This document shows positions 1 through 64,000 of a stretch of 64,000 nucleotides of DNA, in pieces; position 1 is the stretch's first letter; each line of letters starts with the position of its first letter. The stretch lies in NCBI GenBank assembly GCA_047967505.1, contig CM106538.1, one strand, 5' to 3'. The notes beneath the pieces were generated by a model. The model had not been told where the DNA came from and did not search any database. It was given only the letters and a program-made list of their open reading frames with translations. Made by a program: the position numbers and the translations under genes. The stretch is from Dipteris shenzhenensis. Lineage: Eukaryota.

Positions 1-3000
1 CAATCAAGAGACTTCAGAAAAAGAAAGAAAAGAAGAGCCTAACAAATTAATAAATGCAACTATGCCACCCAGTACACATGACACATGTCAGGCTAGTTCA
101 ACCCCATCAGAGGCCGATCTTCGAGAAGTGCCAGAATACTTCAAGAATTATACTAGTGGTAGTGCACCAATAGCAATGCTAAGAGCACTTAGAGAATTTA
201 AAGTTCAAGAAACCGATAGCATCGGAGAAACTACAATCTATGAGGGACCGACAAAAACACGCACAATAAACCTCCCCTTGAAAGGGGACGAAGAAAAATT
301 GGTTTTCATTGGGAAATAGCTTTGTCACGAAGATGAAACCAAACTCAAAGAACTCCTAATGGAATACCGTGACTGCCTAGCATGGTCATACAAAGAGATA
401 AAAGGAATTTCACCAGAAGTGGTAGTACACACGATACCTATAAGGGAAGGTGCTCACCCTAAGGTATGTTGACCTTATTGCACAAATCCTTAATATGGCA
501 CCATGGTTTTTGATGAGCTGGAAAAACTCCTAGATGCCGGATTCATCTACGAGATAGAGCACACTGATTGGGTTTCACCCATTGTCATTGTACCTAAATG
601 CAACAAGAAGCTCAGAATATGCGTAAACTTAAAAAATGTGAATGCCGCCACAATTAGGGATCACTATCCCCTACCCTTAACAAAAACAATGTTGGAAAAG
701 GTGGCAGGATCCAAAATATATAGCTTCTTGGATGGCTTCAATGGCTATAACCAAGTGCAAATTGCTCCTCAAGACCAATCAAAAATAGCATTTGCTACAG
801 AATGGGGTATTTTTTGCATATAGAGTCATGCCATTCGGCCTTTGTAATGCCCTAGCCACATTCTAGCGAGTCATGTATTCTAGCGAGTCATGTTCACAGC
901 TTTCAAGTCATTTTTGAATAAGTTTTTACAGGTGTTCTTGGATGATTTGTGCATCCATTCAAACAAACAAGACCACTTTAAATGTCTTGAAGAAGTACTA
1001 ATCAAATGCAGGGAGTATGGCATCTCCCTAAATCCAACAAAATGCCAGTTCATGGTCACCCACGGAGTTGTTTTGGGACACATCGTCTCTCAACATGGGA
1101 TTGCAACTGACATGGAAAAAATCAAAATCATCATGGAATTGCCTCCTCCTACAAATTCCAAAGGTGTACAGGCCTTTATGGGACATGCCGGCTATTATAG
1201 AAGATTTATATTGTGGTATGCCATGATAGCTTGACCACTTTACAAATTATTAGTGGAGTTCTTATGGACCGAAGAGTGTGACCAAGCCTTTGAGCTTTTA
1301 AAGTGGTGCCTAATCACAGTACCCATCCTTATATCTCCCAATTGGGATATTGATTTTCATGTTCATACTGATGGATCCAAGTATGCAATTGGGAGTGTGC
1401 TTTGTCAACCTGGTAAACATAAGAAAAACTACCCCTTCTACTTCGCCAATCGACAACTCAATGATGCAGAGATCAACTATACAACCATAGGAAGAGAAGC
1501 CCTAGCAATGGTGTATAGTGTAAAGAAATTTTGGCACTATCTACTAGTAAATGATTTTGTCTTCTACACTGACCATCAAGCATTGCTTTATCTTGTGAAC
1601 TGTCCATGTACCACAGGAAGAATAACCAAATGGCTCCTCTTGCTTCAAGAATTCAACTCCAAAATAGTGGTCCGCAAAGGTGCCCAACACTACATTGCCG
1701 ATCACATGTCTCGAGTCAAGTCGGGAGAAGAAGCCACTAGAGTAGAAGACGACTTACTAGATGCCACACTATTTCAAATAGATGTTGTTCCAGAATGGTG
1801 CGGGGATATCATTGGGTACTTGATGGTAGGAAGACCACCCCCTGACATGAAAGCAGTAGATGCCAAAAAATTGATTCTAAAGGATGCACCCTATCAACTC
1901 ATTACAGGACAACTGTACAAGATGGGCAAGGACCAGATCTTAAGAAGATTTGTAATGCCTCATGAGATCATGCCAATCCTGAGTGAAGTCCATGAAGGCA
2001 TTACAGGAGGACACTTCCAAGGGGAAGCCACAATAAGAAAAGTTCTCCTTATAGGCTACTAGTAGCCAACACTGTGGGCAGATGCCTATGAATATATAAA
2101 AGGCTGTGATATATGCCAACGGACTATTAAGCCACAACACAAAGACTTCAATCCCCTAACACCAATTGTTGCATAAAAACCATTTGAAAAATGGGGGATT
2201 GACTATGTGGGTCCCATACATCCAATAGCAAAAGGAACACAGGCATGCTACATCATTGTGGCCACTGATTACTTTACAAAATGGGCTGAAGCTAAAGCAG
2301 TCAAAAAGGCAGATGCCAGAAGCACAGCAAGATTCTTATATGAAAATGTGATCACCCGATTCAGATGCACCATTGAAATTGTGTCAGATAGAGGCCCTCA
2401 TTTTGTCAATGAGGTAATCCAAGAACTCTTGTCTGGCTTCATGGTAATCCATAGAAAAAGCACACCCTACTACCCCCAATGGAATGGACTAGCAGAATCC
2501 ACCAACAAAATAATATGCATTATCCTCACCAAGGTAGTAGAACCACATCGTTCTGATTGGGCAGAGAAACTGAATGCTACCTTATGGGCATATAGAAGCA
2601 CATTCAAGGTTAGTACAGGGAACACATCTTTTCAATTGGTGTACGGCCTTGAAGCTATGGTCCCACTCGAATTTGTAATACTAAGTCTACGCATTGCAAT
2701 ACAGGAATGCATGGGTGACCATGAATCCTTGAAAGAAAGGCTCTATCAGTTGGAGAAGCATACAGAGACAAGACTAGTCGCCTACCATGCCATGACAATA
2801 GAAAAACGTAGAAGAAAGGCATGGTTTGATAGAAATCTGAAAACTAAAGACATCAAGGAAGGTGACTTAGTCCTGTTATACAATGCCAAAGTACACAAGG
2901 GAAAACTGAAGTATCTAGGTCAAGGACCCTATCGAGTACAAAAGATGAATCTCATTGGAGCTATGTTGCTAAAGCGCTTTAGTCAACACAATAGTAAACG

Positions 3001-3055
3001 GGAGCCAACTAAAGCGCTACTACATCAACATGCAAGCCATCCCGGACAAAAATGA
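1..3055 (+). mobile_element. Decayed Ty3/gypsy pol (RT-RNaseH-integrase), runs off the left edge
   Basis: Successive ORF pieces carry RT motifs (WVSPIVIVPK, LRICV, FLDGFNGYNQ, VFLDDL), RNase H (HTDGSKYAIGSVL, NYTTIGREALA) and integrase (GGHF, IVATDYFTKWAEA, IVSDRG, GLAESTNK). Domain order is gypsy-type; several stops and frameshifts. Confidence 0.95.
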
Positions 3056-11910: not shown

Positions 11911-13961
11911 TTTTACATAGAGGAGGACCTTACAGAGGCAGCCCTGCAGATATGGGTTTCTCATGTCCAGGGTGGGCAGCCATTTCCATCACGTGTAGCC
12001 GCTGCCCTTTCTGGTATTAGCGACTTCTACCACTCAGTTACTTGTACCAAGAGACGAGATATTCTCAGACGTGAGATTGGTGTTCGCCAGCAGTTGGCAG
12101 CTTTGTAGAGGGAAGAGCAAAAACGGCCTTTAGATGCTTGGATTCAGGAGCGCCTTGCTGCAGCAAGGGCTCATTAGCAGTTATTGCTTGATCAGATGCT
12201 TGATCAGAGAGCAGAGTATGCCTTTCATGCACGGGAGTCCTTCTGGATTCAGATGGGTGGTAGAGTCAATAAACATTTTTTCTCTACTCTTGGCCCTAGA
12301 CATAGTAAAGAGAGTGTATCCCAGCTTATTGACTCACATGGGGTTTTACAGACAGAGCCTGATGATGTCTTACGCATAGCTTCAGATTTCTATGCCACCC
12401 TTCTTACTCCTGATCCTGAGACCCATTATAGAGAGGATGCTAGACAGGCTATTTGGTAGAGCATCCCTGTGTTGGTGAATCCGGGTATGCATGTTCTACT
12501 CGATGCACCTTTCACCAACACAGAGTTCAGGACTGCACTTTTAGCCCTTCACAAGGGCAAGTGCCCAGGTTCGGATGGCCTCACCCCATCTTTTTTCATT
12601 GCATTTTGGGATATGATTGGAGACTATATTACTTCAGCGCTGCAGGCCATTTGGGACTCTGGCGAGATGCCTGGGTTGCTTACAGAGGGTCTCATCCACC
12701 TTATCCCAAAAGGAGATTGCAGAAATTTAGTGTCCCAGTGGAGGCCTATCACACTTCTGGGGACTTGTTACAAGATTCTGGCCAAGGCTATCAGCCTCTG
12801 ATTGCAGCCACTTCTCCCTGATCTTATTCATGATACTCAAACGGGATTTGTGCATGGCAGAAGCATTTTTTATAACATTTTTTCTTTCTGGGAAGCTTCA
12901 GAGTGGGCAATGCAGAGTGGCCAGAATCTTGCCATTCTACTTTTGGATTTTGAGAAAGCTTATGACAGAGTAGATTGGGGTTTTTTGGAGGGCACCCTTC
13001 TGATGCTTGGATCAGAGGTGTTTCCTCTTTGTACAGATCAACCCACAGCCAGGTACTTATTGGTGGGGTAAGGGGTGAGAGATTTCAGATTTCGAGATCA
13101 GTTCGTCAGGGATGCCCCCTTGCTCCTTTCCTTTTTTTGTTCATGGCCGAAGCTATGAGTATCTATGTTAGATCTCAGGCTGACATCTTTGTGCTGAGAC
13201 TTCCCATCAGAAGGGAAGAGGAGCTACTTGACAGTGAGTTGGCAGATGACACAGCAGTTTACTTGGATGCCACTCCACAGACGCTCACTTCTTTCAGGAC
13301 AGCATTGGATTTATTTTGCTTGGCGGCAGGGACGCAGATAAATTGGCATAAATCCAATGGCTTTTGGATCAGTGATGAGGACACTCCAGTGGGGGCTTGA
13401 CATAGGATTCACTTGGGTTCAGAGGGTTGAGCCTATCAGGTATTTGGGCTGCCAGGTCGGCTTGGATATTTCTACCACGCAGCAATTTGCTCCCGTTTTA
13501 GAGAGCATCAGAAGGAAGCTTCTTTTTTGGAGCTCAGCCAAGCTAGATCTTGCCTCTAGAGTTGTGGTGGTCAACTAGGTTCTCTTGGCCACGGCCTGGT
13601 TTGTTTGTTCATGCTGGTGCCGTTCTAGGGACTACATCATTTAGCTCAGAAGACTGATCAGAAACTTTCTCTAGAGTGGGCTTGATGGCACAGCAGATGC
13701 CTTAGCCAGGGTGGCTTGGGAGACCCTCATCCTCCCTACATAGGAAGGGGGTCTCAATATTATTGATCCAGATTTACAGTGCAGAGCTTTACTTTGCAAG
13801 ATGGTGGTGGTGGTGCGGGGACTTATGCCAAGGCAGGAACCGTGGAAGGACTTTCTTATCAGCAGCATACAAAGGTGCACACCTTCTTTAGGAGGAGACT
13901 GGATGAGCAGTGTTAGGTGGATCTTCACCACAGCAGACCTCAAATCACCTTCGTCCCCTGG
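11911..13961 (+). pseudogene. LINE ORF2 reverse transcriptase (inverted 5' part), several nonsense codons
   Basis: KCPGSDGL, WRPITLL, QTGFVHGRSI, LDFEKAYDRVDW, VRQGCPLAPFLF, LADD, RYLG. Confidence 0.95.
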
Positions 13962-14195
13962 AGTGTTTTTTGACCGAACCCACCTTGAGAACTGCGAAAC
14001 CTGCTGTGTTTTCCGTCATCAAATGTGAGTCGATGCTTGTCTCCGATTTGTTCCTGAGGTCTCCAAGGTCAGCGAGCCCATGGGAGGGGCACTTAACGGA
14101 TCTGTCTTAGTGGTGCGACAACATCGTCCTGTGGTTGGGAAAATCACAGCTGAAGCTAGACAGGCAATCGGTGCTAGTACAACCCCGTTGAAGAC

Positions 14196-17100
14196 ATGCT
14201 TGGCGAAAACGAGGTTCAGAAGGGGGGAAGCCAGGGAATCAACAGGTGCAAAGTATCTGGTCTGCATGCAAAGAAACAATTGACGTGCTCAAGTTCTGAA
14301 GACCTTAGCTTGGCAGCGGAGCTAGAACTATCTGGCCACATGCGCAAGGCTAGCTGTAGGTCTGGACTACAACTTGATGTACAGCCACCGCAACGGGGCA
14401 GTGGTTGGGACATGCTGACCTTAGCACAAACACTCAGTATTTTGGATCGGATGGCTGAGCTACCTCCAATCGATACCTTTATCTGCATCTTGCAGAAGTG
14501 CAGGGTAAAAAACAACCTAGCGTACGCCAAGCGTGTACATGCACACATTTACCATAATGGAGTGGAAGCTCAAGGATATGTTGGGAACAACATTGTGCTA
14601 ATGTATGTGGGATGTGGAAGTGTGCCAGATGCTCGACAGGTTTTCAACAGGTTGGCTCGTCAGAATGAGCGGTTATGGACTTCTATCATGTTAGCGTATA
14701 TCCACTGTGGGCAAACGCCCCATGCTCTCTACCTTTACAAGGAAATGCAAAAGGATATGGTATATCCTAGCAGGTATACGCTTATAGCCTTATTAAAAGC
14801 TTGTGCTAAGCTGAAAAATGTGGAAAGAGGTAGAGAGATTCACGTTGAGATCTCACAAAAAGGATTTGAAAAGAATTTATTAGTTGGCAGCGCTTTGATT
14901 GACATGTATGCGAAATGTGGCTCACTTGCAGAGGCACATCAAGTCTTTGACAAGCTGCCAGTTCAAGATGTTGTGTCATGGGCTTCACTGATCGCAGGCT
15001 ATGCTGAACACGGACGTGGGGAACAAGCACTTGATTGTTTTGAACAGATGCAACTGGAGGGCATCTCTCCAGATGCTGTCACATTTCTTTGTGCGTTGAA
15101 AGCCTGTAGCAGCGTAGGAGCCTTAGACAAGGGTCGAGAAATACATGCTGATGTCACTCAAAAGGGCTTTGAAGGAGATCTTTTTGTCGGTAACACGCTG
15201 GTTGACATGTATGCCAAATGTGGCTCACTTTCAGAGGCATGTGAAGCCTTTGGCAAGCTGCCAGTTCGAGATGTTGTGTCTTGGGCAGCACTGATTGCAG
15301 GATATGCCGAGCATGGACCTGGACAGAAAGCACTTAAATGTTTTGAACAAATGCAAATGGAGGGTGTCGCCCCAAATGTTGTCACATATGCTTCTGTCTT
15401 GAAAGCTTGTAGCTGTACAGGAGCCATTAGCAAGGGCCGAGGAATGCATGCTGAAATCACACACAAGGGATTTGAAAGAGAGATTTTTGTTGTCAACACT
15501 TTGGTCGACATGTATGCCAAATGTGGTGGGCTTTCAGAGGCGCAGGCAGTCTTTGACAAGCTGGCTGTACGAGACGTTGTTTCCTGGACTGCACTAATTG
15601 CGGGATATGCTGAACATGGACCTGGCCAGGAAGCACTGAAATGTTTTGAACAGATGATACTGGAGGGCATCTCTCCGAGTGCTGTTACGCTTGTTTGTGC
15701 TTTGAAAGCTTGTGGCAGTGTAGAAGCCATAGTTAAGGGCAGAGAAATACATGCTGAGGTCACTCGGAAGGGACTTGACAGAGAACTTTTCCTCGGCAAT
15801 GCATTGGTCGACATGTATGCTAAATGTGATTCACTTCTAGAGGCGCAGAAAACCTTTGAGAAGCTCCCAGTTCGGGATGTTATTTCCTGGGCTGCCCTTA
15901 TTTCAGGATATGCTGATAATGGGGCTGGTCAGGAGGCTCTGAAATGTTTTGAGAAGATGCAAGCGGAGGGCGTCTCTCCAAACGCTGTTACGTTTGCTTG
16001 TGTCTTCAAAGCATGTGGGAGCATAGGGGCCATAGAAAAGGGTAGACAAATATATATGGAGATCACAAAAATGGGATTTGAAAGAGATCTTGTTGTAGCG
16101 GGCACTTTGGTTGATATGTATGTCAAATGTGGATCACTTTCTGAGGCACGGGAAGTCTTTGACAAGCTACCATCTCGAGATGTTGTGTCCTGGACTGCAA
16201 TAATTGCAGGATATGTTGAACTTGGACCTGCTGAGGAAGCACTGAAATGCTTTGAACATATGCAAATGGAGGGCATCTCTCCAGACAATATTACTTTTAT
16301 TTGTATTTTGAAAGCTTGTGGCATCATAAGAGCCCTATACAAGGGGCGAGAGATACATGCTGAGATTGCCGGCAAGGAATTTGAAAGCAATCTTGTTGGC
16401 AGTGCATTGGTCAACATGTATGCAAAATGTGGCTCACTTTCAGAGGCATGCGAAGTCTTTTATAAGCTGCCAGTACGAGATGTGCTGTCATGGGCTGCAC
16501 TAATCGTGGGACATGCTGAATATGGACCTTGTCAGGAAGCAATGAACTGTTTTGAACAAATGCAACTGGAGGGCATCCCGCTGGATGCTGTTACATTGGT
16601 TTGTGTCCTGAAAGCATGTGGCAGCAGTGGAGCCATAGACCAGGGGCGCAAATTGCATGCTGAGGCTACACAAAAGGGATTTGAAGGAGATCTTTTTGTG
16701 GGTAACAGTTTGATCGACATGTATTCAAAAAATGGCTCACTTTCAGAGGCACGCGAAGTCTTTGACAACCTCCCAGTCCAAGATGATGTATCTTGGGCTG
16801 CACTAATTGCAGGATATGCTGAACATGGACCGGGGCAGGATGCGCTGAAATATTTTGAGCAAATGCAATTGAAAGGTGTCTTGCCGACTCCAATTACATA
16901 TGTTTCGGTCTTGAAAGCTTGTGGCAGCATAGGAGCCATAGGCAAGGCCCAATACATACATGCTGAGCTTGCACAAAGGGGCCTTGAAGGAGACCTTTTT
17001 GTTGGCAACACATTGATTGACATTTATTGCAAATTTGGCTCAATTTCTGAGGCAAGGAGAGTCTTTGAGAAGCTACCACTTCGAGATGTTGTGTCATGGA

Positions 17101-17795
17101 GTACAATGATAAAAGGATATGGCTTGAACCATGAGGGTGAAATGGCTGTACAATGTTTTAATGAGATGCATAACCAGGGTGTGATGCCAAATGCTGTTAC
17201 ATTCAATTGTCTTCTTACTGCATGCAGCCATACCAACCTTCTCTTTGAGGGTCAGGAGTATTTCAAAGTGATGAGACAAAAATATGGAGTTCCACCAACG
17301 ATAGATCACTATACTTGCATTGTGGACCTTCTTGCACGAACAGGGCATTTGCATGAGGCAGAGAAGATGCTTGAAACTATGAGCTTTCATGCATCTGAAG
17401 GAGCATGGACAGCTTTACTTAGCGCTTGCAAAACATATGGGAAAGCAGAACTTGGACAGAGGTGCTTTCAACAGCTTGTCCAGATGGCTCCAGAATCAGC
17501 CACGTCGTATGTGCTCATGGCGAACATCTATTCACTTGCTGACAAGTGGGATGATGCATATAGAATAGACGACCTGAGGAAACATGTAGGGGTAAAGAAA
17601 AAGCCTGCAAGTGCTGTGGTAGAGGTGGACAATAAGGTGCATGAGTTTGTGGTGGGTAGCAATCACAGTAACGAAATTTCTATAATGCTAGAGAGCTTGA
17701 ATTCACGCTCAAAGGTGGAAGGGCATGTGCCATACGTAGATATGGTCTTAAAAACCATTCCTCATGAGGAGAATGAAGCTGTATACAGAAATTAG
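14196..17795 (+). CDS. PLS-class pentatricopeptide repeat protein, L-S-(P-L-S)x8-P2-L2-S2-E1-E2 plus truncated DYW:KP domain; putative organellar RNA-editing factor
   Basis: Uninterrupted 1199-aa ORF with ~101-aa triplets (VVSWxALIAGY / TFxCxLKAC / LVDMYAKCGS), E1 (AWTALLSAC), E2 (SYVLMANIYS), then KPASAVVEVDNKVHEFVVG..GHVP. The true start codon is uncertain. Confidence 0.96.
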   Translation: MLGENEVQKGGSQGINRCKVSGLHAKKQLTCSSSEDLSLAAELELSGHMRKASCRSGLQLDVQPPQRGSGWDMLTLAQTLSILDRMAELPPIDTFICILQKCRVKNNLAYAKRVHAHIYHNGVEAQGYVGNNIVLMYVGCGSVPDARQVFNRLARQNERLWTSIMLAYIHCGQTPHALYLYKEMQKDMVYPSRYTLIALLKACAKLKNVERGREIHVEISQKGFEKNLLVGSALIDMYAKCGSLAEAHQVFDKLPVQDVVSWASLIAGYAEHGRGEQALDCFEQMQLEGISPDAVTFLCALKACSSVGALDKGREIHADVTQKGFEGDLFVGNTLVDMYAKCGSLSEACEAFGKLPVRDVVSWAALIAGYAEHGPGQKALKCFEQMQMEGVAPNVVTYASVLKACSCTGAISKGRGMHAEITHKGFEREIFVVNTLVDMYAKCGGLSEAQAVFDKLAVRDVVSWTALIAGYAEHGPGQEALKCFEQMILEGISPSAVTLVCALKACGSVEAIVKGREIHAEVTRKGLDRELFLGNALVDMYAKCDSLLEAQKTFEKLPVRDVISWAALISGYADNGAGQEALKCFEKMQAEGVSPNAVTFACVFKACGSIGAIEKGRQIYMEITKMGFERDLVVAGTLVDMYVKCGSLSEAREVFDKLPSRDVVSWTAIIAGYVELGPAEEALKCFEHMQMEGISPDNITFICILKACGIIRALYKGREIHAEIAGKEFESNLVGSALVNMYAKCGSLSEACEVFYKLPVRDVLSWAALIVGHAEYGPCQEAMNCFEQMQLEGIPLDAVTLVCVLKACGSSGAIDQGRKLHAEATQKGFEGDLFVGNSLIDMYSKNGSLSEAREVFDNLPVQDDVSWAALIAGYAEHGPGQDALKYFEQMQLKGVLPTPITYVSVLKACGSIGAIGKAQYIHAELAQRGLEGDLFVGNTLIDIYCKFGSISEARRVFEKLPLRDVVSWSTMIKGYGLNHEGEMAVQCFNEMHNQGVMPNAVTFNCLLTACSHTNLLFEGQEYFKVMRQKYGVPPTIDHYTCIVDLLARTGHLHEAEKMLETMSFHASEGAWTALLSACKTYGKAELGQRCFQQLVQMAPESATSYVLMANIYSLADKWDDAYRIDDLRKHVGVKKKPASAVVEVDNKVHEFVVGSNHSNEISIMLESLNSRSKVEGHVPYVDMVLKTIPHEENEAVYRN

Positions 17796-17827
17796 TCATA
17801 GTCGTGGGGTTTTGCAATATGCCACAG
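17786..17827 (+). pseudogene. Out-of-frame remnant of the DYW deaminase core
   Basis: A shifted frame reads QKLVIVVGFCNMPQ, aligning with the DYW segment EKLAIAFGLLNTPx that normally follows the HxE motif. Confidence 0.7.
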
Positions 17828-17914
17828 GAAATGTTTGCCATGCTGAAAGAGAAGCTACTTCTGATCCAGTGTAGATCTTACCAAATCTCCAAAAAGCTTT
17901 TCATCTCCAATGTA

Positions 17915-18958
17915 ATGCTCGTGGGAAGAACGGCCTTGGAGAAGTTCTAATGTAGGTGCAACATTCAGTGGGATCTAAGAGTGTGGTTCTGGCCCGTTTG
18001 CATAGGGCATTCAGACCAGGTGGAGGAGGTCTCCTTTTCTTACACTAGCATCGGACACCGTTAACAGCTCGAGGGAGCAGCATGGTCTCCCTTGAGGGAA
18101 CGCCATTGGTTAGAGCAGGATGTTCCGAGAGAGGTCATAGCCTGTTTCTGGCCTCGTCTTTGGGCGATCTTGCGCCCACTTAAGATTCCTACTTTTTCTA
18201 GCTGATGGCTCATGGGGATCTGCCCATCGGCCCCTGGCTGGAGCAGATACGGGTAGACGGTAGATGCACTGGCTGTGCAGATGGAGTTTTGGAGACAATC
18301 CCTCACTGCCTATGGGGTTGTTCTACAGCGGATATGGCTAGTGTTCTTTTGGATTGTGGCTAGTACACGGAGGATGAGCAAGGATTTCACTTGGGGGATG
18401 GCGACCTAGCTCACGGAGGGAGGACACACCTTCGCGATTGACCCTGTCTCTCCGGCTTACAGGATACATGGAAAGCAGGTCTTCCAGATTTAGATTCATG
18501 ATGTAGTTCGACCCTCCTGCTGAGGCCCACCATCTCTACCGGAGGACAGTGTGTGGGAGAGAGTTTCTAGCATAAGTGCTTGGAACATCTGGGTCGCTCG
18601 ATGCAATCGAATGATGGGAGGCCAGTTGATTTCTTCGACAGCTATTCTAGTAGCCATCTGGCAGGATATCATCTTCCCGCTGTGCGCCATTTGCGAGCGT
18701 GGTACCCCAGGCTCGAGAGCGACTGCCGAAAGGCGGGAGTGTTTCTGCCAAGCATGGCTGGCAGAAATCTTCTGCGAAGGGTATTCGTTGGATGTATAGG
18801 CCACCACCTTGGTTGCTAGCTCCTGTTTGGGCGGTGAGCCAAGAGATCCGAAAACAGGTGGCTTTCTTACAGTTGGCAACCTGCTTCTCTTTTGTATTTG
18901 CATCGGCAACTCCTTTTCAAAGCATTAATATAATCTTCATTTTTTTGGAAGAAAAAAG
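17915..18958 (+). mobile_element. 5'-truncated L1-like LINE (zf-RVT and 3' end)
   Basis: FWPRLWAILRPLKIPTFF*LMAHG..CTGCADGVLETIPHCLWGC and WNIWVARC. Ends TTAATATAATCTTCATTTTTTTGGAAGAAAAAAG, resembling the 3' end of the 10281 element. The 5' boundary is approximate. Confidence 0.85.
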
Positions 18959-19099
18959 GATGAGAAATTTGTAAGAATCTGACCAACTTTTCTATTGACC
19001 AGCTTTGAGATGGGATGTGGATGCCTTTGTTAGAACATGCATGATCTATCAGAAGGTCAAGTTTGACTGATAGAAGGCACCTAGGTGTTGCATCATCCA

Positions 19100-61366: not shown

Positions 61367-64000
61367 CTATCCAATGCCCATCAATACACGACAATACTCA
61401 AACCACTGACTAGGTAGACTCTTCGTCAGCATATCTGCAGGGTTATCATCTGTATGAACCTTGACAAGCTCTATGCACTTGTCCTCAAGTATGATGAAAT
61501 GGTACCTGACCTCAATGTGTTTGGTCTTTGCATGAAAGACTGGATTCCGTGCTAGCTGAATAGCACTCATGGAATCACTATGCAATGTCGGTACACCTGT
61601 ATGAATCCCCAAATCTCCCACTAGCCGATCAAGCCATATAGCCTCCTTGTAACCCTCTGTGGCTGCAACATACTCAGCCTCTGTGGTAGACAAAGCAATG
61701 CACTTCTGTGCGTGAGACATCCACGACACTGCACCACCTGCAAAGGTGAACACATAACCAGAAGTGGATCTCCTACTATCCACATGCCCTGCATAGTCTG
61801 AATCTGTGTACCCAAGTACACGCATGTCTCCTTTACCAAAGCAGATGCACATCTCCTTGGTACCCTTCATGTACCTCATGATGCACTTAACTGCCTCCCA
61901 ATGCCTCTTTCCTGGATTAGCCATATACCGGCTAACAACTCCCACTGCAAATGCAATGTCTGGTCTAGTAGCTATCATAGCATACATAAGACTCCCAACT
62001 GCTGATGCATAAGGAACCTTGGCCATCATGGCCCTTTCCTCATCTGATTTGGGACTATCTGTATGACTCAGTTTCACATATGGAGGCAATGGAGTACTCA
62101 CTGCCTTCCCCCCCTCCATATTGAAACGTTGTAATACTTTTGTAACATACTCTTTTTGTGAAAGCTAAAGGAGTTTCCTACTCTGATCACGCGTGATGCG
62201 CATACCAAGAATATGACCTGCAAGTCCCAAATCCTTCATATCAAAGGCCTCATGCAACTTGGCCTTTAATGCATCTAGCTCATAAGTATTCTTACTAGCC
62301 AATAGCATATCATCCACATATAGTGCTAGGATTATCAGGCTATTATCCTTAGCCCTTTTAGTGTAGAGGCAGTGATCAATTTCACTCCTTCTAAAACCCT
62401 GGGACCGAATGAAAGCATCAAACTTCTGATACCATTCTCTAGGTGCTTGCTTAAGATCATAGAGACTCTTCTTCAGCTTGCAAACTAAATGCTCTTTTCC
62501 CTTTTCTTCAAAGCCTTCCGGCTGCACCATGTAAATTTCCTCATGCAAATCCCCATGCAAGAAAGCTGTCTTGACATCCATTTGCATAAGCTCCATATCC
62601 TCTACTGCCACTAGTCCAAGCATGCATCTAAGTGTGGTCATCTTCACAACTGGAGAGAATATCTCATCAAAGTCCACACCCTTCTCTTGCTTGAACCCTT
62701 TAGCAACCAAACGGGCCTTGTACCTAGGCACATCATCACCTGTGACCTTCATTTTGTAGACCCATTTACATGGCAATGCTTTCTTTCCATGTGGCAAAGA
62801 AACCAAGTCCCAAGTCTTATTCTTCATAAGTGAACTCATCTCTGATTGCATAGCATACTCCCACTTGCATTGATCCTCATGCATCATAGCCTCTCTGTAG
62901 CAAGAAGGCTCCCCGCAATCAGTAAGCATCACATAGTCTACCCCTGGAACAAACCTATCAGGTGGTCTAGACACTCTAGATGATCTTCTCAAGGGCATTT
63001 CAGCTTGCTGTCCCACTTGCATATCAGCCACATTTGGCTCATCATTTCCACCAATAGATGATCCATCATCTACCCTTGATTGTATACCTGTGGGAGTACT
63101 TGGTGGCACCATTTCTTGCACATTTGGTACATGGACAACTTGCTGTCTATCAACATATGCAGGTGGATTCACATCCTGGAAAGTGATTCTCCTCATTTCC
63201 ACGTCCCTCATGGGTGCCTTATGCATCTTCTTCTCATTGAAGACCACATCATGGCTGCGTATGATCTTCTTTGCTTCTGGATCCCAGAGACGATAGCCCA
63301 TCTCTCCACTTTCACCATAACCCAGAAAGATGCATTTCCTAGACTTAGGATCTAGCTTCTTTCGAAGCTCTTTTGGCACATGTGCATATGCCTCACACCC
63401 AAATATACGCAAATGAGAGTAAGAGGGCTTCTTGCCACTCCATGCCTCTTCAGGAATACCACCATCCAAACTCTTACTAGGTGATCTATTGATCACATGC
63501 ACTGCAGTCTTCATTGCCTCAGCCCAAAAACCACTAGAAAGACTTGCATTGGAAAGCATGCATTGCAACCTTTCTTGAATGGTACGGTTCATCTTTTCTG
63601 TAACTAGATTTTGCTCTAGAGTACGAGGGGATGTAAGCTCCCTCTTAATCCCACGAGTATCACAGAAATGCTGAAAGTCATGAGAGAGATACTCTCCACC
63701 ATTGTCAGTCCGTAGGCATTTAAGCATTCTACCTGACTGATTCTCAACCAAGGCCAGCCATTTCTGAAATACCTGGAACACATCACTCTTCCGAGCTATA
63801 GTATAAGCCCACACTTTCCTAGTTGCATCATCAATGAATGTCACATAGTATTCAGCCCTGCCTAATGACCGCGTAGGCGTGGGACCACATACGTCTGAAT
63901 GCACCAAATCAAGCATTTCAAACTCTTTCTTTCCCCTTCTTTTATGGGCTGATTTAGTCTGCTTCCCATAGAGACAGTGCTCACAAAATTCAAAATTAGA
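61367..64000 (-). mobile_element. Near-intact Ty1/copia pol (INT-RT-RNaseH), runs off the right edge
   Basis: ORFs 62165-63916 and 61367-62119 are in the same frame, split by one TAG. Motifs VHSDVCGP, LRTDNGGEY, YKARLVAKGF, QMDVKTAFLHG, YVDDML, YTDSDYAG, TKHIEVRYHF. Confidence 0.97.

Follow-up and report, generated by a model that had tools for sequence, protein, structure and literature searches.

A PLS-class pentatricopeptide repeat gene of Dipteris shenzhenensis ends inside a DYW:KP domain, just before its catalytic motif

This analysis concerns a 64,000-nucleotide (nt) stretch of contig CM106538.1 from the fern Dipteris shenzhenensis (GenBank assembly GCA_047967505.1), called the window below, and the one gene in it for a pentatricopeptide repeat (PPR) protein of the PLS class. 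The protein keeps a long RNA-binding array and the first half of a C-terminal DYW:KP domain, the type associated with U-to-C or "reverse" RNA editing, and stops just before the HAE motif of the zinc centre. On balance, we think it probable that this is an organellar RNA-editing specificity factor of the E+:KP type, which is kept by selection and depends on a KP donor. The model proposes that the 29 PPR-like motifs together with E1-E2 would recognise a single organellar RNA site or a few of them, and that a net loss of 13 nt cut the protein's own DYW:KP domain just ahead of its HAE..CxxC zinc centre, the rest of the domain then having been lost or having decayed. Catalysis would then have to come from a separate DYW:KP protein acting in trans, by analogy with the E+ proteins of flowering plants, which use DYW1 or DYW2, and the retained 65-residue half-domain with its KP box would be a likely site of docking or complementation. 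Both the editing of U-to-C sites and the reliance on a trans donor are predicted roles of the protein.

Anatomy of the gene

The open reading frame (ORF), its parts and the sequence just beyond it are as follows; boundaries of the array and of E1-E2 are approximate.

14196..17795, plus strand: intronless PLS-class PPR ORF, 1199 amino acids (aa) and TAG stop (ORF listing, Pfam)
14457..17396, plus strand: PPR array, one L-S pair, eight P1-L1-S1 triplets and P2-L2-S2 (segmentation)
17397..17591, plus strand: E1-E2 motifs (Pfam E_motif at aa 1081-1143, segmentation)
17592..17792, plus strand: retained N-terminal half of a DYW:KP domain, with KP box KKKPASAVVEV, HEFVVG and EGHVP (KP model positions 1-65 of 136 and two further residues)
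17793..17795, plus strand: TAG stop, four model positions before the HAE zinc-binding motif (KP model; same letters in contigs of three runs)
17786..17827, plus strand: probable domain remnant in the -1 frame, QKLVIVVGFCNMPQ against family EKLAIAFGLLNTPQ (KP model, shuffles)
17828..17990, plus strand: place expected for CxxC and the C-terminal part, with no similarity in any frame (shuffles, Pfam)

No other ORF in the window exceeds 600 aa. The protein has the tandem P, L and S motifs of the PLS class, with Pfam scores of 443.6 bits for PPR_2 and 380 bits for PPR, and its E1-E2 region scores 47.1 bits as E_motif (cut-off 27.3; aa 1081-1143). Segmentation with the customary motif lengths of the PLS nomenclature divides the protein into an N-terminal part of about 86 residues, the L-S pair, eight P1-L1-S1 triplets, P2-L2-S2, E1-E2 and a 65-residue tail, the array amounting to 29 PPR-like motifs. 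The triplets remain in register (101, 101, 101, 101, 101, 100, 101 and 101 aa), the single length change within the array being one whole codon, and triplets 2-8 are 73-78% identical in DNA among themselves.

The retained half-domain is of the KP type

The final 67 residues of the protein, VKKKPASAVVEVDNKVHEFVVGSNHSNEISIMLESLNSRSKVEGHVPYVDMVLKTIPHEENEAVYRN, are followed by TAG at 17793-17795, the tail reading KKPASAVVEVDNKVHEFVVGSNHSNEISIMLESLNSRSKVEGHVPYVDMVLKTIPHEENEAVYRN up to this stop. A hidden Markov model (HMM) of 136 positions, built from the C-termini of eight full-length fern relatives and referred to as the KP HMM, matches the in-frame tail to its positions 1-65 in a gapless alignment (64.6 bits, E 5e-22). 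The Lys-Pro pair of DYW:KP is present in the N-terminal box (KKKPASAVVEV); the Pro-Gly box and the GDxSHP spacing after HxF, which belong to DYW:PG and the classical E+, are absent, PA standing in place of PG. Among solved structures, the sole match of the tail at E<=10 is a PG-type synthetic PPR-DYW protein, 9kfx (32.6 bits), in an alignment with two gaps, 3 residues in total, after HEFVVG, and a full KP relative differs from 9kfx by the same three residues.

A filter-free phmmer search with the last 119 aa against 1.84 billion representatives returned 1606 proteins at E<=0.001, the best 150 of which were classified by box with a simple, self-made rule. KP-box proteins occupy ranks 1-11 and 16 of the top 18 of these 150. 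Their median rank is 21 (32 proteins), as compared with 85 for 91 PG-box proteins and 77 for 25 proteins with a "W.KPGKAW"-like (WW-like) box; one further protein had no HMM match and one fell outside all box classes. Because KP-box proteins rank at the top, the KP HMM alignment is gapless and the PG alignment needs gaps, the tail is KP-type and not PG-type. An earlier note, made from the letters of the window alone, had read a KP-type tail stopping before HxE and had suggested that KP and PG be compared by HMM; the KP HMM, the 9kfx alignment and the ranking all agree with that reading, and neither HxE nor CxxC is found in the tail.

The retained half-domain is conserved to the same degree as in intact relatives, being 37-57% identical to the eight, which among themselves average 52% (minimum 37%) over the same stretch. 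Pfam DYW_deaminase (PF14432) did not match the ORF protein even at E<=1, nor the tail at E<=10. That model begins at position 44 of the domain (it covers positions 44-135 of a relative's domain, with 120.4 bits), so that about 22 of its 93 positions, and no zinc ligand, are left in the window protein. A separate observation from the same best 150 of 1606 concerns the "W..PGKAW" box, AWKKPGKAWIEV: 20 of its 25 representatives end before HxE and 4 are complete, and most proteins with this type of box seem to be truncated.

A break just before the zinc-binding motif

The in-frame alignment ends with ..EAVY at model position 65 and the ORF at position 65-67, with HAE at 67-69, and the HAE(x)nCxxC signature is therefore missing from the protein. 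No HxE or CxxC could be recognised in any frame at the collinear place. The active-site lysine, Lys88 of KP6 in the numbering given in the excerpted text of PMC11845758, is also missing, as the protein ends about 20 positions earlier. With all catalytic residues gone, the protein cannot, on this anatomy, catalyse editing alone.

The -1 frame (start 17597) reads ..SCIQKLVIVVGFCNMPQEMFAM.., just as the earlier note had written in proposing that a shifted frame continues the domain. Within it, QKLVIVVGFCNMPQ (17786-17827) aligns to model positions 70-83 (EKLAIAFGLLNTPQ) and is directly adjacent in the DNA. The KP HMM aligns this frame to positions 70-89 weakly, with -2.0 bits, and an HMM of the C-terminal half gives the remnant 2.8 bits, a score that 42 of 1000 dinucleotide shuffles of 17775-18000 also attain when the best of the three frames is taken. 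Homology of the remnant is probable, the evidence being moderate and the exact collinearity adding weight. Model positions 66-69 (C-E-H-A) have no counterpart at the locus, and between the V codon and the Q codon there are 2 nt, as compared with 15 in relatives (L-C-E-H-A), which gives the net loss of 13 nt. This loss may have occurred in one step or in two, an A-run possibly having lost 2 nt separately.

At least 9 of the 42 nt of the remnant would have to change to reach the consensus block, which is nearly invariant in relatives. Past ..NMPQ (17827) no domain similarity was found, 77 of 500 residue shuffles scoring as high over the remaining ~53 codons, and the 67-codon stretch past the break has 10-15% ungapped identity to relatives, which average 72% there. 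The -1 frame has a stop of its own, and Pfam recognised no family (0) in the three downstream frames read through stops. To the eye, the remnant might have extended further ("RKCLPC", ORF frame; "CHAE", third frame; "CRCNIQW", -1 frame), but these three candidates did no better than shuffles and were set aside. These results bear out the contrast drawn in the earlier note between an intact 3.6-kb ORF and a drifted remnant. The small deletion proposed there, of about 10 nt, comes near the net loss of 13 nt at the HxE site but fails to explain the loss of ~53 further codons; since just 14 remnant codons are recognisable, a second lesion or long decay is needed in addition.

The truncation in independent sequence

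Three public sequencing runs, X1, X2 and X3, from three studies and under two organism labels, contain 37-51% of the sampled words of 16500-18100. Their contigs were aligned to 14000-18400 at 90% likeness, with the following results around the stop.

17210-17884: contig of run X1 across the stop, 1 other letter, 0 gaps
17210-17956: contig of run X2 across the stop, 3 other letters, 0 gaps
17696-17864: contig of run X3 across the stop, 0 other letters, 0 gaps
17956..17957, no strand: structural-difference junction, with extra sequence in contigs of all three runs that is missing from the window (contig records)

Because the contigs of all three runs show the same stop and the same frame without gaps, the truncation is not an assembly error: stop and frame are real. 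The frameshift on which the earlier note had built its reading is present in independent sequence. Of the listed differences across the 4.4 kb, two are indels (14126 and 18155), and neither lies within the ORF, an unlisted position being no proof of identity. At 17956/17957, about 160 nt downstream of the stop, run X1 has 492 letters between two aligned pieces, and the contigs of X2 and X3 continue unlike the window; from the contig records we infer a structural polymorphism or a species difference. This extra sequence implies that the runs are not simply the window's own assembly. Although X1 and X3 have been guessed to be RNA, the run contigs cover both flanks at similar depth and were consequently treated as DNA.

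A scan of all 64 kb in six frames with KP HMMs, together with tblastn using P0008, found no other DYW:KP piece and no other PPR gene. Neither a downstream exon nor another copy that could restore the domain turned up, the same six-frame scan and tblastn search yielding only ORF 14196..17795. In these small runs the summed contig depth reaches at most ~35,000 over the central PPR array (14882-17086), as compared with ~10 on the flanks; the deep coverage of the array reflects many near-identical PLS motifs from paralogues in these genomes.

Truncated and short KP proteins in other ferns

A word-indexed search with the last 160 aa returned 14 proteins at E<=0.001 among 168 candidates. The ten best matches, 47-56% identical, are fern proteins (Adiantum capillus-veneris, A. 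nelumboides) or translations of transcripts or contigs. Eight of the ten are complete, with the pattern KKKPASA.IEV..HEFVVG..GHVPN..LCEHAEKLAIAFGLLNTPQG..KNLRMC.DCH..ISK.E.REII.RD...HHFKDG.C.CGDMF; all eight carry HAE and not HSE, and their C-terminus is not DYW.

Truncation near the end point of the window protein, which lies at about model position 67, is common. Among the best 150 of 1606 representatives, 54 end before HxE at a median projected position of 58.5 (interquartile range 54-65), and 22 of these are at least 500 aa long. The 32 KP-box representatives include 7 that end before HxE, P0029, P0035 and P0039 (641-1107 aa) among them, and KP-box proteins with such an end also include P0003 and P0006. 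Some of the ends look alike in proteins of different sources: P0003, P0006 and P0170 (Adiantum nelumboides) stop after GHVPD, P0035 after GHIPD and P0030 after GYLLD, which suggests that at least one truncated KP lineage is conserved across species. These five resemble the window protein in having a KP-type box (KKPAVALLEL-like) and an end past the GHVP block and before HxE. They differ from it in being about 8-12 residues shorter, with tails alike in all five, and P0003 and P0006 are 49% identical to it over the last 160 aa; the P0003-type truncation is a separate event from that of the window protein. A further observation concerns short proteins. P0171, P0172 and P0168 (243-286 aa) consist of L2-S2-E1-E2 and a full DYW:KP domain only and are candidate trans-acting KP donors; P0171 and P0172 (286 and 274 aa) are annotated as complete ORFs in another fern transcriptome.

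Genomic surroundings

Apart from its one gene, the window consists largely of retroelement sequence. Other features recognised by Pfam are as follows.

1253-3055, plus strand: gypsy-type RNase H and integrase
12802-13578, plus strand: reverse transcriptase (RVT_1) of the long interspersed nuclear element (LINE) type, broken over three frames
61367-64000, minus strand: copia-type integrase and RVT_2 polyprotein, running off the end of the window

The broken LINE reverse transcriptase lies about 600 nt upstream of the PPR start, on the same strand, and the expansion of PPR genes in early land plants has been tied to retroposition (PMC13386178). The immediate flanks of the gene, 17796-19000 and 13500-14195, are unique in the window save for one match of ~50 nt.

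Selection, decay or another function

Maintenance of the array and the half-domain by selection is suggested by the state of the reading frame and by its divergence. Under simulated random substitution (2000 trials), the 3597-nt frame stayed open in 17.8% of trials at K=0.01, 4.3% at K=0.02 and 0.05% at K=0.05; at K=0.1 or 0.2 no trial left it open. Relative to run X1, the pieces on the ORF side differ at 14 of 2001 nt and the downstream sequence at 16 of 536 (Fisher p=9e-5). The listed low-depth differences within the ORF comprise 11 distinct ones, 5 synonymous and 6 nonsynonymous, which with 22% synonymous sites corresponds to an omega of ~0.34.

Several observations weigh against selection and against an editing role, and they make up much of the case for a pseudogene, that is, one PLS-PPR copy among thousands that has lost its catalytic end and is decaying, its frame still open as the loss is recent or as the 3' end has been replaced. 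The ratio of 5:6 is not significant (one-sided binomial p=0.075) and applies to the differences listed, 26 more being unlisted. The divergence contrast holds only for the downstream flank: in the piece 14000-14558, of which 196 nt precede the ORF, 5 of 559 nt differ, so that it has not diverged further than the ORF itself. In addition, the contigs over the array may mix paralogues (depths to ~35,000). The decay argument depends on the 14-codon remnant, for which p is ~0.04 and homology moderately supported, and the open frame would carry little weight had a single recent event replaced the 3' part. No close orthologue was found, whether among proteins of "near" or "shorter" length or among 50% representatives, the best match being 56% identical over the last 160 aa, and no protein with the same end occurs in the protein collections. 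There is no evidence of transcription, the contigs of X1-X3 being treated as DNA. The gene is set among decayed retroelements, the frame-broken LINE reverse transcriptase on its own strand among them, and catalysis was lost through a frameshift and not through a clean conserved stop. Finally, alanine stands at position 5 of the P motif in 6 of 9 regular-expression matches (VVSWA..) in the window array and in none of those obtained from 17 relatives, which mostly have T, N or S there, and this could weaken base recognition. Alanine is unable to make the usual base contact, which leaves the window protein with an odd RNA code; recent internal duplication as the source of the pattern was considered and is unsupported, as the triplets are just 73-78% identical in DNA.

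However, we regard a pseudogene as unlikely. The 3.6-kb frame contains neither stop nor frameshift, its sole length change being one whole codon, and such a frame seldom survives K=0.05, whereas the remnant behind it has changed at 9 of 42 nt or more. The half-domain is conserved as in intact relatives, the ORF has diverged four times less than the downstream flank relative to X1, and the truncated form is common to runs under two organism labels. The gene might instead encode a functional PPR binder of organellar RNA that serves in stabilisation, processing or translation, with the KP stub a functionless relic. In its favour, the catalytic centre is gone from an otherwise intact RNA-binding array, no datum demands a donor, and ferns have far more PLS proteins lacking an editing domain than they have editing domains (excerpts of PMC12548569; PMC13263110, Table 1). 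Yet a pure binder would need neither E1-E2 nor a KP half-domain, both of which are conserved here as in intact editing factors; the end point fits the common E+-type end, and the excerpted text of PMC13263110 and PMC12548569 reads such fern proteins as editing with trans donors. A non-editing binder thus seems to us quite improbable. An assembly or sequencing error that conceals a complete DYW:KP domain, to be restored by a corrected indel or by splicing to a downstream exon, has nothing in its favour past the general assembly error rate. Three independent contig sets have the same letters and 0 gaps across the stop, the -1 frame with its own stop contains neither HxE nor CxxC, and the 64 kb hold no other DYW:KP piece in six frames, so that such an error is exceedingly improbable. 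The E+:KP-type specificity factor that works with a KP donor remains the explanation that we prefer.

Implications

Ferns have thousands of organellar editing sites and few complete editing enzymes, and two recent papers propose, in their excerpted text, that PLS proteins and DYW or DYW:KP domains assemble in trans, which for U-to-C editing is a proposal (PMC13263110; PMC12548569). The locus is a concrete genomic example, its KP origin legible from the frameshift scar and the 14-codon remnant and its end at the common E+-type point. It is possible, although we hold the idea only tentatively, that it represents a datable snapshot of the passage from DYW:KP to E+:KP, in which the catalytic half was destroyed while the array of 29 motifs and exactly the first half of the KP domain were preserved by selection. 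If this were so, the 65 N-terminal residues from the KP box to GHVP would be an independent module able to dock to a catalytic KP donor or to complete its structure, and the pair would form a split enzyme for reverse editing, much as CRR4 does with DYW1 in its own system, with a defined interface for trans U-to-C editing. The gene could provide assays with a truncated factor to be tried alone or together with a KP donor, and could mark the KP part that is kept once catalysis is outsourced. Taken alone, as a gene of function predicted from its letters, the locus leaves the general picture unchanged and adds one more of E+:KP type.

Comparison with known systems

Angiosperm E+ PPR proteins use DYW1 or DYW2 in trans, as does CRR4 with DYW1. 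Like the window protein, they carry a truncated DYW stub after E2 that lacks a catalytic centre, their catalysis coming from a partner. They are, however, PG-type proteins that act in C-to-U editing with known partners, whereas the stub of the window protein is KP-type.

The full-length PPR-DYW:KP factors among the relatives (P0001, P0002, P0004, P0005, P0007-P0010) have the same PLS-E1-E2 layout as the window protein, a layout also shared by the designer KP proteins described in the excerpted text of PMC9478123 and PMC11845758. They share its first 65 domain positions, the KP pair and the spacing, which is free of the 3-residue PG-type insertion. The window protein, in contrast, is without HAE, CxxC, Lys88 and the C-terminal end. 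According to the excerpts of these papers, the subclass is set by the N-terminal pair, PG or KP, and U-to-C editing requires Lys88 (PMC11845758), while the alanine of HAE is specific to DYW:KP and HAA and AxxA mutants lose U-to-C editing (PMC9478123). Because mutation of HAE or CxxC, or of Lys88, abolishes this activity, the window protein is not a catalytic member of DYW:KP.

The closest counterparts are the E+:KP proteins of Schizaeales ferns, and the label "E+:KP" that the earlier note had given to the gene is indeed that of a class in print (PMC13263110, Plant J 2026, Table 1). Table 1 counts 16, 16, 34 and 214 such proteins in four Schizaeales ferns, as compared with 4-16 full DYW:KP proteins. 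The excerpted text proposes DYW:KP domains as donors in these ferns, and that of PMC12548569 (MBE 2025) proposes trans donors for Salviniales as well, notes short DYW:KP sequences and cites Arabidopsis DYW1 and DYW2 as precedents. The class and its trans-acting KP donors are thus already in print, neither being demonstrated experimentally for U-to-C editing in the excerpts. The anatomy of the window protein agrees with the class as given in PMC13263110, in that both have PLS triplets, a C-terminal truncation, an E-type end and KP signatures, and the Schizaeales proteins are there presumed to rely on DYW:KP donor domains. The Schizaeales proteins were counted in transcriptomes by PPR HMMs (those of Gutmann et al. 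2020), whereas the window gene was assigned by our own KP HMM and motif reading. Unlike its Schizaeales counterparts as described in PMC13263110, the window gene also displays the genomic scar of its truncation, a frameshift followed by a 14-codon remnant.

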